Shown: piece after piece, positions 9,907-25,352 of the stretch
Numbering within the stretch: the first letter of the stretch is position 1
How the letters are laid out: every line of letters begins with the position of its first letter
NCBI GenBank assembly: GCA_945865375.1
Contig: CAMBEJ010000003.1
Location: 9,862 to 73,861 of the forward strand
Direction: 5' to 3'
Origin: Akkermansia muciniphila
Lineage (GTDB): Bacteria > Verrucomicrobiota > Verrucomicrobiia > Limisphaerales > F1-80-MAGS106
Length of the DNA: 64,000 bases
The notes under the pieces: generated by a model
Told to the model about the DNA's origin: nothing
Database searches by the model: none
The model's input: the letters and a program-made list of their open reading frames with translations, nothing else
Made by a program: the position numbers and the translations under genes

Positions 9907-9962
9907 CTCTCTCGCCGCTTCGAGCGCGGTCAGCGGGCAGCGCGCGCCAGTAACGAAGGCTC

Positions 9963-10031
9963 TGAACTCAGTAAAACGACCCTGTTTAGCCGGATTCCAG
10001 ATCTCGATGTCAACCGCTTTTACTGAGGTCT
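9963..10031. mobile_element. MITE-like element, family 2, short form (69 bp)
   Basis: Imperfect terminal inverted repeats TGAACTCAGTAAAACG / CGCTTTTACTGAGGTCT. Flanked by an exact 8-bp direct repeat GAAGGCTC (9955-9962 and 10032-10039). The same termini recur at 16547 and 23011. Confidence 0.7.
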
Positions 10032-10037
10032 GAAGGC

Positions 10038-11918: not shown

Positions 11919-12791
11919 TTGCAGACTAAGACACAGACGGCGGGGCACCTTGGGCTGCCTTTGACTTTCCGCAGCATCGCTGCCTATTCGCAAGCTTCGC
12001 CTGCGCGGTGCGCTCTTTGGTATGGGGTCTGGGCTGCGGCTTGCGCGGTGTTATGCGTAGGGGCGATCCACCGCGCATGGATCCCGGGGGTCGAACTGGC
12101 CCTCAGCAGGCTCCCGGAGAAAGTCTCTTTCCGCGACGGCCGCTTGGGGTGGCCCACTCCCCATCCGGTTGTGCTCGCCAACGACCGCTTTCTCTCCCTC
12201 ATCGTGAACCCGGGAGCGGAAACGACGGTGGACCGCTCGGCCGACATTCAAATTGAACTGGGAGTGCGGGAACTCCGATGTCGCTCGCTTTTGGGATGGA
12301 TGGAGTGCCCTTTCCCTGCCTTTCTGGACGGGGATTTCGGTCGCAGCTCCGCTCTCCCTTGGTGGGATGCCTGGAAACCGAGCCTTCTCATGGTTCTGGC
12401 TTTGGTCCTTTGGGTCGCCCTTTTGATCTCCTGGGCGTTGGTTGCGTCCGCTTACACCGGACCCGCGTTTTTATTCGCCCGGATGTTGGGAAAACCCACG
12501 ACGTTGTCACAGGTCTGGCGGAGTTGTGCGGCAGCGTTACTCCCTTCCGGAGCTCTTGTCACTGCGGCAGGAATGGCCTACGCCTGCAACCAAATCACAC
12601 TGCTTCTCCTGGGCGTGTTTTGGCTGGGCCACTGGCTTGTGGGTTGGGTTTACTTGATCGGAGGCATCGTGCGTTTCCCCAAAGCCTCACCTTTGACTGA
12701 TCCAGCTTCTACCCCAGACCCTTTCGCAACGGCGGTTGGCCCCCATCCAATTGAAACCAAAAAGAATCCATTTCATGACTCTCGAAAATGA
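11919..12791 (+). CDS. Hypothetical integral membrane protein
   Basis: 290-aa ORF with a TTG start in the track (start uncertain; no in-frame ATG until well into the ORF). Several hydrophobic helices (LMVLALVLWVALLISWALV; LLLLGVFWLGHWLVGWVYLIGGI). No recognisable family motif. Confidence 0.5.
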   Translation: MQTKTQTAGHLGLPLTFRSIAAYSQASPARCALWYGVWAAACAVLCVGAIHRAWIPGVELALSRLPEKVSFRDGRLGWPTPHPVVLANDRFLSLIVNPGAETTVDRSADIQIELGVRELRCRSLLGWMECPFPAFLDGDFGRSSALPWWDAWKPSLLMVLALVLWVALLISWALVASAYTGPAFLFARMLGKPTTLSQVWRSCAAALLPSGALVTAAGMAYACNQITLLLLGVFWLGHWLVGWVYLIGGIVRFPKASPLTDPASTPDPFATAVGPHPIETKKNPFHDSRK

Positions 12792-12893
12792 TATTAAGAT
12801 TAACGTTAACTTTCACAATCTCCTGATTGTTTTCGAGTGCTTTTTAAAGTCTTGGTTTGACTTTCGCACTCAAATAAAGTAAAAAAAATGAAG

Positions 12894-16455: not shown

Positions 16456-16546
16456 AAAGTCTGTGTTGGTTTGCCAACGCGTTTGTCGACTGAAACGGCG
16501 CCGCTTTCAATCCAAAATCGAAAGTGCCCCTCTGGATCCCACCCAC

Positions 16547-16915
16547 TGAACTCAGTAAAACGACCCTGTTTAGCCTGATGCTCGAGCAACTCCAATTCCC
16601 TGCTCCTAATCGTAATCGTAATCGTAATCGTAATCCACCCCTCTGTTTCAAGGGCAACACCCGAGGATTACGATTACGATTAGATTCTTAAATCCTAAAT
16701 CTCGATGAATTATCTCTCAGATTTTGAACCACAGAGGCACAGAGGCACAGAGAAGAACAAACAATGAAACCAAACTTTTCCTCCTCTCTTTTCCCCCTCT
16801 GTGTCTCTGTGTCTCTGTGGTTCAAATTTCAAATCTGTTTGGCTAGGATTAGGAAAAACGGAGGAATTGGGGTTGCGCGCCCAGATCACGATTTCAACCG
16901 GTTTTCCTGAGGTCT
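16547..16915. mobile_element. MITE-like element, family 2, long compound copy containing two tandem-repeat-stem hairpins
   Basis: Left end TGAACTCAGTAAAACGACCCTG and right end GGTTTTCCTGAGGTCT match the family-2 termini. Flanking ACCCAC occurs on both sides (16541-16546; 16917-22). Contains a (TAATCG)5 hairpin at 16607-16687 and an additional nested hairpin at 16726-16823. Confidence 0.6.
16726..16823 (+). repeat. Tandem-repeat-stem hairpin (unit CACAGAGG), 27-nt arms
   Basis: 5' arm is GAACCACAGAGGCACAGAGGCACAGAG and 3' arm is CTCTGTGTCTCTGTGTCTCTGTGGTTC. 25 of 27 positions are Watson-Crick, and both exceptions are G opposite T on the + strand. The 44-nt loop starts AAGAAC and ends CTCTCTTTTCCCC. 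Confidence 0.85.
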
Positions 16916-16926
16916 GACCCACGCCG

Positions 16927-21242: not shown

Positions 21243-21334
21243 CAGCTTTTCTTTCGTTAGTTTTTCGACCAGCCTTCGAGTGTAGCGTAGCGACCCTTCG
21301 TCGTCATGCCCTGTTTAATAAGTCACTCAGCAGC

Positions 21335-21558
21335 GGGTGCAACTCACGGTTTCCGGGAGGTGTCGTTCGGAGGACAATACCTACCGCAGAATGGGAAGAG
21401 TTAACCACGGATGACACGGATAGCACGGATAAAGTACCCCTCTCCGCTCCCTTTCCTCATCCGTGTTATCCGTGTCATCCGTGGTGTCACTTCAGCGTGG
21501 TTAAGCGGCGGGATACCCGCGTCAGGGGAGGCGACCTCGGATAACGTGAGTTGCACCC
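21335..21558. mobile_element. MITE-like element, family 1, copy 1 (224 bp)
   Basis: Perfect 14-bp terminal inverted repeats GGGTGCAACTCACG / CGTGAGTTGCACCC. Flanked by an exact 9-bp direct repeat CTCAGCAGC (21326-21334 and 21559-21567). Central tandem-repeat-stem hairpin at 21404-21485 (unit CACGGATA/G). Confidence 0.85.
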
Positions 21559-21659
21559 CTCAGCAGCGAGCAGTTCACCGGTTTGCATTCTGGCCGTTCG
21601 ACTACGGCACTCACAAAAGGGATCTAACACCGACAACGGTTTTCGTTTCCTCGCGCAGC

Positions 21660-21804
21660 CATCAGTTCTCATTGTGGTAGGCAAAGTGGAGTAGACCTCC
21701 AGGTCTGCCAGTCGCGGAGGCCTCTGGCCCCGCACGGAGTGGGACACTCCGCGAACCGGCAGGTCGGAGACCCTGCCCCACCGTGTTCAAAATGAGAACC
21801 GCTG
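21660..21804. mobile_element. MITE-like element, family 3, full copy (145 bp)
   Basis: Termini CATCAGTTCTCATT / AATGAGAACCGCTG match at 12 of 14 positions as inverted repeats. Flanked by an exact 9-bp direct repeat TCGCGCAGC (21651-21659 and 21805-21813). Internal palindrome AGACCTCCAGGTCT. Confidence 0.8.
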
Positions 21805-21823
21805 TCGCGCAGCGGGAGTCGAT

Positions 21824-22834
21824 TTATTTCCTAGCGCACATCATGGCAGTGCATGCCTTGATCACACTCTGGGAATCGATCGTTTCCATGAGAAATTCTC
21901 CGGGACCGTTCCCGCCGTACGGGTCGCCGACTGGCAGAACGATTTGGTGAGGCACCTTCCACGGCGCCCACTGGCTGACAACAGAAGGACCGAACAACGC
22001 CACAATAGGGCACTGGCAGGCGGCGGCAAGATGCATCGCCGCCGTGTCCACGCCGACGAACAATTTGGCCCGATGCAACACCCAGGCCAGGTGCGCCCAT
22101 GTGAGGGTGCCTTGGGTGGAAATGGCCCTCGACCCCAACTCTGCTGTGAGTCGTGCCGCGCTTTCAACCTCCTCGGTGTCGGGCCCAGCGCTGATCACGA
22201 TTCGCGGTACATGATTCAAAAGTGATCGGCCAACCTCAACCCACCGGTCGTGCAGCCACCGCTTCCTCTTCCACCGTGTTCCCGGGTGAAGCACCACAAA
22301 GTCCGCATCGCCTTCGAGTTTGTCCCATTTCATGGTTCTCGAACGATCAAAAACCATCGGAGGCGGCGCAGCACCGATCGGAAGAAAGTCGCGCACCGTA
22401 AAGAAATCTTTTTCAACGCGGTGCCCCTGAGCCCACTCGTGATGCGACCGGCCGTTGAACCAGAGGCGCCACCAGGGGTTGAGTGAGTAAAACGATGTGT
22501 TGGCGCACCGTCTGCAGGCCGCGCTCAGGCCAGCAACCCATCGACCCCGATCCCCATCGGTGAGTTCGAAGGCGTAATCAAACCTCTGTCGTCGGAGTTC
22601 CAAACCTAGCTTGACCTCGGACCACCACTCCACCCGGGAACGGTTCCCCGCTTCAGGCGCCGCCGCCGTCAGAACCCGGTCGATGACGGAACAACCCTCA
22701 AGAACACCCTCGGTTCCTCTCCGAACGACCACCCAGATCAAGGCATTCGGGTCGAATTCACGAACCGCCTGCAAGGTCGGCGTCAACAGCAACGCATCCC
22801 CTATGTGTTTCAGTTTGACAAATAAATACCGCAT
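21824..22834 (-). CDS. Glycosyltransferase family 9 (LPS heptosyltransferase-like)
   Basis: ORF track 21824..22981. The likely start is ATG 22834 (MRYLFVKLKHIGDALLLTPTLQAVRE, the typical GT9 N-terminus). C-terminal motif is FVGVDTAAMHLAAA. Confidence 0.85.
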   Translation of the reverse strand: MRYLFVKLKHIGDALLLTPTLQAVREFDPNALIWVVVRRGTEGVLEGCSVIDRVLTAAAPEAGNRSRVEWWSEVKLGLELRRQRFDYAFELTDGDRGRWVAGLSAACRRCANTSFYSLNPWWRLWFNGRSHHEWAQGHRVEKDFFTVRDFLPIGAAPPPMVFDRSRTMKWDKLEGDADFVVLHPGTRWKRKRWLHDRWVEVGRSLLNHVPRIVISAGPDTEEVESAARLTAELGSRAISTQGTLTWAHLAWVLHRAKLFVGVDTAAMHLAAACQCPIVALFGPSVVSQWAPWKVPHQIVLPVGDPYGGNGPGEFLMETIDSQSVIKACTAMMCARK

Positions 22835-23010
22835 CGCGCGATCTATCAGGGCAGAGCTCCTGCAGGGTGGGAAGCGGAAAATGCTCTGAACGCAGCAGTT
22901 CCGCCCGCTGGCGCGCGGGCGGGGACGACGCAGCGCACCGTCCCTACCTGATGTCTTTCGGCCGAGGGGGGTGCGATCCATTTTCCATGCGGTCAGGAGT
23001 TCTGAGCCTC

Positions 23011-23229
23011 TGAACTCAGTAAAACGACCCTGCTCTCGAGCAACTCCAATTCCCTGCTCCTGCTCCTGCTCCTGCTCGTAATCGTAATCGTAATCGTAAT
23101 CGTAATCCTCCCCTCTGTTTCAAGCGCAACACCCGAGGATTAGGATGAGGATTACAATTACGATTACGACAAATGGAGGAATTGAAGTGGCTCGTCCGGT
23201 TGCGATTCCAACCGCTTTTGCTGAGTTCT
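23011..23229. mobile_element. MITE-like element, family 2, long copy with hexamer-repeat hairpin
   Basis: Termini are TGAACTCAGTAAAACGACCCTG and CGCTTTTGCTGAGTTCT. Internal (CTGCTC)4 at 23054-23077 and (GTAATC)5 at 23078-23107 pair with GAGGATTAGGATGAGGATTACAATTACGATTACGAC. The loop CCCCTCTGTTTCAAGCGCAACACCCGAGGA is nearly identical to that at 16638-16667. Flanks show no clean duplication. Confidence 0.65.
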
Positions 23230-23282
23230 GAGCTTGGTGCAGGAGCCCATCTCGAAGGGCCGAGGGATGGACAGCCGACCAC

Positions 23283-23514
23283 GGGTGCAACTCACGGTTT
23301 CCGGGAGGTGTCGTTCGGAGGACAATACCTACCGCAGAATGGGAAGAGTAACCACGGATAACACGGATAGCACGGATAGCACGGATAAAGTACCCCTCTC
23401 AGCTCCCTTTCCTCATCCGTGTTATCCGTGTCATCCGTGGTGTCACTTCAGCGTGGTTAAGCGGCGGGATACCCGCGTCAGGGGAGGCGACCTCGGATAA
23501 CGTGAGTTGCACCC
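23283..23514. mobile_element. MITE-like element, family 1, copy 2 (232 bp)
   Basis: Same 14-bp TIRs as copy 1. Flanked by an exact 9-bp direct repeat GCCGACCAC (23274-23282 and 23515-23523). The central hairpin 5' arm carries one extra 9-nt unit relative to copy 1. Confidence 0.85.
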
Positions 23515-23593
23515 GCCGACCACGCCTCATGCTTTTTGAACTTATCAAACCATCGGAGTTTTGAAAGGATTGCGAGAGAATGATGCGATCCCT

Positions 23594-24667: not shown

Positions 24668-24826
24668 GGATCGGCCTCAGGTCGTTCACCCGGGTGTGTG
24701 ACCGCAAAGTAACCTGAGAGTGAGGATTTGGCCTCCGTTGTGGTTTTGGAAACAGGGTGCCATGCTCGTGTGCTGCAAGATTGGTCCCTTGACGATCGAT
24801 CCTGAATCCGGCAGATCGATTCACCT

Positions 24827-24940
24827 CAAAGAACGCAAAGAACGCATAGGGAAAGAGTTGCGAACATCCAAAGCATCACCCGGCAGGGGACCCTTTAATA
24901 ACTTGGTAAGTTCTTGTCTTTGCGTTCTCTGCGTTCTTTG
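24827..24940 (-). repeat. Tandem-repeat-stem hairpin (unit AACGCAAAG), opposite orientation to the others
   Basis: Arms are CAAAGAACGCAAAGAACGCA and TGCGTTCTCTGCGTTCTTTG. The single mismatch is A opposite C on the + strand, which is G-T on the - strand. On the - strand the loop starts AAGACAAGAAC and ends CTCTTTCCCTA, like the loops at 16753 and 21431. Confidence 0.8.
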
Positions 24941-25060
24941 CGGTTAATTCAACTGCTCTTTCCAGGATGGTCAGTTCGAACAAATCTTCGCCGATTAGCA
25001 GGGTAGGACCGTATTTGTCCCACCCTCTCTCGTAGGATCCACATAAAACAGAGGATCACT

Positions 25061-25255: not shown

Positions 25256-25289
25256 AATTCAACGAGGGCAGGGCGAGCCGCTAAAACGG

Positions 25290-25352
25290 ATGACTGATGA
25301 CTGATGACTGATGACTGATGACTGCTCACTGCTCACTCCTCACTCCTCACTG
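25290..25352. repeat. Two abutting heptamer tandem arrays: (ATGACTG)5 then (CTCACTS)4
   Basis: Direct reading: 25290-25324 is five exact ATGACTG units, and 25325-25352 is CTCACTG CTCACTC CTCACTC CTCACTG. Lies immediately 3' of the 25361 gene stop. Confidence 0.9.

Follow-up and report, generated by a model that had tools for sequence, protein, structure and literature searches.

The intergenic regions of this locus raise the question of what the long hairpins are whose arms consist of short tandem repeats, and whether they act as RNA or spread as DNA. The original prediction described four of them in the window (the whole 64,000-nucleotide stretch of DNA analyzed) as a genuine class with tandem-repeat arms, varying unit sequences and conserved polarity, a description that our results support. 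All four are present in the sequence. Hairpin (i) occupies 16723-16826 on the minus strand (its "target" orientation), with arms at 16723-16752 and 16797-16826 composed of TTTGAAC and three copies of CACAGAGG, and a loop that in target orientation begins GGGGAAAAGAGAGG and ends GTTCTT. Hairpins (ii) (21404-21485) and (iii) (23351-23441) are built from units of CACGGAT plus 2 nt, three in the former and four opposite three in the latter. Hairpin (iv) spans 24819-24948, with core arms at 24819-24846 and 24921-24948 of CGCAAAGAA and CGCAGAGAA units and a 3' foot reading GCGG-TTAATTC, and with its surrounding imperfect palindrome of ~170 nt it extends over 24799-24968 on the plus strand. Divergent genes flank hairpins (i) and (iii), and (ii) and (iv) are found downstream of genes in matching orientation. 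Though these four are real, the set was incomplete, as two further tandem-arm hairpins made of TAATCG hexamers had been missed, one at 16607-16686 with (TAATCG)x5 opposite (GATTAC)x3.7 and the conserved loop CCCCTCTGTTTCAAGGGCAACACCCGAG, the other at 23076-23169. The window holds eight hairpins with stems of at least 16 nt, the longest of 35 nt, against 0 to 2 (mean ~0.8, longest 23 nt) in 30 dinucleotide shuffles of the same DNA. Stems of hairpins (i)-(iv) measure 27-30 nt, the 35-nt stem belongs to one of the two TAATCG hairpins, and RNA-fold z-scores of the hairpins range from -6 to -10. The hairpins are real members of a large intergenic family with stems made of short tandem repeats.

Contrary to the original prediction, the stem sequences are related to one another. 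Their units are variants of C-R-C-R-R-A (CACAGA, CACGGA and CGCAAA/CGCAGA), every stem begins with ..(T)TNAACC and closes with GG-TTAA or GG-TTCAA, AACC/GGTT bases are common to them, and the 15-mer GTTCTTTGCGGTTAA of hairpin (iv) recurs in a hairpin of another MAG (L005). What had been said of the loops stood, with the ends AAGAAC... and ...CTCTTTCC recurring among the hairpins, polarity conserved, and hairpin (iv) inverted relative to the other three. An Rfam search of the window and 18 loci at gathering thresholds gave no match to the hairpins, an E-value-threshold search of three loci (L008, L005 and L002) returned only intron and sub-threshold microRNA-like hairpin matches, and a literature search for the literal sequences recovered only unrelated papers with a single 13-mer and not the hairpin family.

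Judging from sequence comparison, the family is common to the verrucomicrobial genome and many uncultured phages. Stems of the CACAGAG, CACGGAT and CGCAAAGAA types occur in well over 100 IMG/VR contigs, and stems that are identical, or differ solely at the variable unit position, carry unrelated loops in unrelated phage contigs of GC 0.41-0.70. Seven family contigs compared directly had no DNA similarity beyond one overlapping pair of loci, and copies within a single phage contig (L100) have the loop in common too. The heptamer cores CACAGAG, CACGGAT and CGCARAG stay conserved over a GC range of 41-70%, and such conservation across very different base compositions could mean recognition by a universal cellular machine and not by a transposase. 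The cultured phages and plasmids that we searched gave no match to the family, and two relatives with YebC identities of 88% and 83% (L011 and L012) have no such hairpins in 33 kb. We propose, tentatively and with somewhat less than even confidence, that each hairpin forms the core of a small palindromic element of foldback type, without coding sequence and akin to REP elements and MITEs, that propagates as DNA. Mobile-element cores had been among the functions originally suggested, and of those candidates this is the best supported.

Among the alternatives, the one that survives best is that the hairpins act in cis as RNA in polycistronic mRNAs, as a 3' stabilizer, an RNase III-type processing site or a stop-start coupling device, with solo purine-rich arrays as unstructured translation leaders, which we regard as possible but rather improbable. 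In its favor, phage copies are mostly situated directly after stop codons (usually ATGA or GTGA) and between co-directional genes, with co-directional spacing in 28 of 35 and 23 of 27 hairpins; the hairpin starts a median of ~12 nt past the upstream stop and ends ~25 nt ahead of the next start. Stems of 25-35 bp also suffice in length for RNase III. One phage contig (IMGVR_UViG_3300046837_000232) carries solo arrays whose purine-rich strand is the sense strand, with a purine-rich tract and ATG after them. A precedent exists in the similar heptamer arrays found before start codons in Beggiatoaceae, Cyanobacteria and Bacteroidetes, for which a translational role has been suggested (PMC4679880). 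The very regular placement in phages, together with the sense purine-rich solo arrays, counts against mobility and could mean a function in mRNA. However, tightly packed phage genomes force any tolerated insertion into such spacers, the gene calls rest on our own codon model, the two arms often differ in length and change one at a time, and in the window, copies (i) and (iii) are situated inside MITEs and have divergent genes on either side.

The strand comparison bears on the same alternative. Mismatches of G opposite T had been read in the original prediction as G-U wobble pairs of a selected RNA, and this claim fails. The mismatch counts given for hairpins (i)-(iii) were correct, but hairpin (iv) has two additional non-wobble mismatches, C.T and T.C, and the window's 5 G.T against 1 A.C is not significant (one-sided binomial p ~0.11). 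When the suggested check for strand bias of G-T versus A-C was run on further copies, the excess of G.T vanished in the larger samples: in 23 phage hairpins with a known transcribed strand, taken from gene calls and hence transcription directions given by our own codon model, sense-strand mismatches comprise 19 G.U and 25 A.C. The two strands fold equally well, with energies differing by 0.8-4.5 kcal/mol in either direction. A second copy of hairpin (i), in locus L014, has an A.C mismatch on the same strand; relative to the window, this locus has one pair restored in (iv) and one in (i), but a new A.C mismatch in (i). Given equal strand energies and the lack of a G.U excess, we reject the reading of a selected RNA structure maintained through G-U wobble.

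Gain and loss of whole units, a single arm at a time, outpaces point substitution. Orthologous phage pairs differ solely by uncompensated unit gain or loss, and in the pair L196 and L215 one 8-nt unit more or less is the sole change in ~170 nt, seen twice. Unit number varies in one arm only between near-identical strains, and a related contig (L002), which has tandem MITE copies, carries five units in the left arm against four in hairpin (iii). Unit number and loop length vary too widely for a single alignment to represent the family, which was therefore surveyed by direct pattern scans. Were the hairpins indeed such elements, their length differences between otherwise identical strains might be used to mark strains or might tune expression. 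Short-read contigs break at the hairpin elements. The family behaves like slippage-prone mobile DNA, and not like a selected RNA structure.

Alternatively, the arrays might be protein-binding sites on double-stranded DNA, one per 7-10-bp unit and arranged in direct and inverted sets as for ribbon-helix-helix repressors or partition centromeres, with hairpin potential incidental. Unit cores are indeed conserved while spacer bases and loops vary, the units appear in solo direct arrays as well as in inverted pairs, and several unit types coexist within one genome. We nevertheless consider such arrays unlikely, as up to five hairpins occur per 11-15-kb phage locus inside late structural operons, among capsid, tail and baseplate genes and not at promoters; the arms remain complementary past the units, in sequence specific to each copy; the arrays have no linked candidate for a binding protein; and mobility and insertion polymorphism would be left unexplained. 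The tandem-unit middle of the stem is more conserved than the outermost parts of the hairpin, the reverse of ordinary MITE terminal repeats, and this counts against mobility.

The reading as mobile DNA draws on how the elements are arranged: they are multi-copy, lie at unrelated loci, and are nested in or beside other palindromic elements. Hairpin (ii) is contained in copy A of a family-1 MITE (21335-21558, minus strand) and hairpin (iii) in copy B (23283-23514, minus strand). Both copies have perfect 14-nt terminal inverted repeats (GGGTGCAACTCACG ... CGTGAGTTGCACCC) and perfect 9-bp target-site duplications that differ between them, namely CTCAGCAGC at 21326-21334 and 21559-21567 for copy A (read from the sequence) and GCCGACCAC at 23274-23282 and 23515-23523 for copy B, and family 1 thus has the hallmarks of a MITE. 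Family 2 is represented on the plus strand by a minimal 73-nt copy at 9961-10033, which has terminal repeats only, without an internal hairpin; by copy 2 at 16546-16917, with terminal inverted repeats CTGAACTCAGTAAAA... and ...TTTTCCTGAGGTCTGA, which holds both a TAATCG hairpin and a nested element carrying hairpin (i); and by copy 3 at 23010-23231, where the 23076-23169 TAATCG hairpin is accompanied by (CCTGCT)x4, expanded on one side only, at 23053-23077. Scans with the family-2 terminal repeat gave one match in the genome scan and one in the metagenome scan.

The nested element (i), a palindromic element of ~163 nt at 16684-16852 on the plus strand, is inserted directly 3' of the TAATCG-hairpin foot and is flanked on both sides by GATTAG (16678-16683 and 16847-16852). 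A second insertion, in L014 (about 12630-12800), is at the other foot of a different TAATCG hairpin and has the same orientation to the local strand, again with GATTAG on both sides; the motif may mark a cleavage site or result from target duplication or microhomology. Besides these two filled sites there are empty ones, in the paralogous copy 3 and L005, from which the element is missing, and at the left foot of window copy 2. Filled and empty sites and the target duplications of family 1 weigh against the hairpins being neutral by-products of replication slippage and template switching in intergenic quasi-palindromes, neither mobile nor functional. Single-unit slippage is the fastest change seen, and one-sided expansions, among them (CCTGCT)x4 and heptamer arrays, do fit such an origin, but the same 20-30-nt stems are found in unrelated phages (GC 0.41-0.70) and in the host, and we consider the neutral origin quite improbable.

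The 3' foot of the hairpin is the landing site of a group II intron. In other strains the intron lies at 21404-21405 on the minus strand, directly 3' of hairpin (ii), with the junction ...CATCCGTGG, intron, TTAACTC, and the equivalent point for hairpin (iii) in MITE copy B falls between 23351 and 23352. Locus L008 is 99.9% identical to 21405-23349. One of its ends reads GTGCGCC..., and the other matches domain V/VI of RF00029 (49.2 bits against a gathering score of 40), giving the junctions CATCCGTGG-GTGCGCC... and ...CTCTAC-TTAACTC; two further loci, L009 and L010, break off at 23349. The intron is represented by its ends alone, ~100 nt of the 5' end, for which plasmids yielded no match, and 130 nt of the 3' end, where the domain V match takes in introns of many genera and assigns no class; class C is marked by a short domain I, the lack of EBS2 and an En-minus protein. 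We interpreted the intron in light of two published studies (PMC1702495, PMC4424553). Class C (IIC) introns are usually located downstream of a terminator motif or another inverted repeat (PMC1702495), their targets including terminator stem-loops, inverted repeats and attC sites, and the position found here, just downstream of a stem-loop in intergenic DNA and at two copies, resembles theirs. It differs in that insertion is 0 nt from the last stem pair, or uses the basal GTGG as IBS1, whereas published insertions fall 3-11 nt after the stem-loop, a comparison made for an intron seen only at its ends.

The same habit of class C introns would be accounted for if the hairpins were intrinsic (Rho-independent) terminators and for that reason targeted by a class C-like group II intron. 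Two further points agree with this, the position of (ii) and (iv) downstream of genes in matching orientation and two phage loci (L189 and L226) whose copies are embedded in an A-tract, stem and T-tract. Yet the geometry and flanks are wrong for the short GC-rich stem, small loop and 3' T-run of a terminator: stems measure 27-35 bp and loops 24-74 nt, the window hairpins are followed by TTAACTC, TTCAAA or TTAATTC and not by a T-run, a 5' T-run and a 3' A-run flank many phage copies whichever strand is read, and (i) and (iii) lie between divergent genes. A simple terminator scan reports no full tandem-arm hairpin, its one match being a 5-bp sub-stem in the arm of (iii) (23366-23352), and does find a normal-looking terminator at 21815-21799. 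Repeated strong terminators in phage late operons would, moreover, be harmful. Termination, one of the functions originally proposed, is therefore very unlikely, and we reject it.

Least probable of all is that the hairpins encode small peptides, with the purine-rich arm as a charged N-terminus, the pyrimidine-rich arm as a hydrophobic tail and translation coupled through an ATGA overlap: in 19 of 24 cases the ORF whose start overlaps the upstream stop stays open across the hairpin, and some run on into signal-peptide-like N-termini, but the frame differs between copies of one phage (NRKERRE versus TAKNAEN; LCVLCV versus SAFFAF), window copy (iii) has an interrupted ORF, no usable start exists in the loop of hairpin (ii), and the frames are open because the composition of the arms lacks stop codons, so that hydrophobic or signal-peptide ORFs were rejected as candidates.

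IIC-attC introns target attC sites, and the hairpins resemble these in being imperfect palindromes (60-140 nt) with AAC...GTT feet (..TTAAC C...G GTTAA..) between co-directional ORFs. The RYYYAAC and GTTRRRY boxes of attC are partly matched, by GTTAAAT in some copies and GTTAACT or GTTAATT in the window. Unlike attC sites, however, the hairpins have tandem-repeat arms and phage structural genes as neighbors, with no cassettes and no integrase, and the neighboring genes led us to reject an integron attC. An intrastrand triplex motif (PMC4666352) was likewise rejected, as the arms are not homopurine/homopyrimidine.

Returning to small palindromic elements that move as DNA, each one is a long imperfect hairpin whose mid-stem is made up of conserved 7-10-nt units in tandem (CACAGAGR, CACGGATNN, CGCARAGAA and relatives), bounded by ..AACC and GGTT... 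We infer that the element may spread through single-stranded DNA in which it folds. Loops of several phage copies contain GCGAAGC, GCGCAGC or GCGTAGC, which we take to match the very stable d(GCGNAGC) DNA mini-hairpins, and such loops hint at single-stranded DNA. An HUH/Y1-transposase-like or REP/RAYT-like enzyme might then insert it either at the 3' foot of a hairpin already in place or in the short spacer past a stop codon. If only foldable copies keep spreading, the arms would stay complementary without selection at the RNA level, and by folding out of the way the elements may be tolerated within operons. No transposase family was among the precomputed Pfam labels for genes at window 15362-36353 and neighboring loci, and no Y1/RAYT or HUH family among those shown for genes around the hairpins; the window and loci examined yielded no autonomous element with these arms at its borders, and the lack of both gene and element counts against mobility.

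REP, BIME and REPIN elements are mobilized by RAYT Y1 transposases. The hairpins are like them extragenic, multi-copy imperfect palindromes, often past stop codons within operons, that cluster, nest and serve other mobile elements as insertion sites, and for both a single-stranded-DNA hairpin mechanism is plausible. Instead of palindromes of 20-40 nt, however, the elements here are 80-170 nt long with stems of 25-35 bp made of tandem 7-10-nt units; they have AACC/GGTT feet with TTAA or TTCAA in place of a GTAG or CGTC tag; no RAYT is among the Pfam labels shown around the hairpins; and members occur in phage genomes. Family 1, with its terminal inverted repeats and 9-bp duplication, is a textbook MITE, and arms of tandem subrepeats with a copy number that varies between copies recall the eukaryotic Foldback transposons. 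In contrast to both, the stem middle and not the termini is most conserved, and there is no known cognate transposase; the elements are also far smaller than Foldback and are bacterial or phage-borne.

A broader possibility, which we consider doubtful, is that these are members of an undescribed superfamily of intercistronic tandem-unit hairpin elements in many phages and some bacteria, recognized by a new hairpin-guided ssDNA mobilization system or a universal cellular machine, with a hypervariable unit number as a tuning knob for neighboring genes. Should the elements prove to be what they seem, a whole layer of repeat DNA would be unannotated in uncultured phages and freshwater Verrucomicrobiota, linking host and phage genomes by shared sequence, breaking short-read assemblies and providing landing pads for group II introns. 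The elements would then represent a bacterial counterpart to the eukaryotic Foldback, with conserved mid-stem units, free loops and free outer stems, and a tractable case of palindromes that stay complementary without RNA-level selection.

Tandem units also occur outside hairpins. Cyanobacterial STRR heptamers and the TAACTGA direct repeats of Beggiatoaceae, Cyanobacteria and Bacteroidetes (PMC4679880) likewise consist of 6-10-nt units in 2-6 copies, are intergenic and often lie in forward orientation directly before start codons, and have a distribution that suggests horizontal spread. Inverted array pairs forming long hairpins distinguish the present family from the TAACTGA repeats, among which the published survey includes one inverted set in 170 (PMC4679880). 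Forward heptamer arrays that end shortly before start codons occur in two phage loci (L142, 9101-9126 and 11506-11551; L088, 7971-8011). Between convergent gene ends, at 25289-25352, the window contains unpaired tandem heptamer arrays, (GATGACT)x5 followed by (ACTGCTC/ACTCCTC)x4, that draw on the same unit vocabulary as the solo arrays of the phage contigs; (GATGACT)n equals (TGACTGA)n, one base off TAACTGA (PMC4679880).

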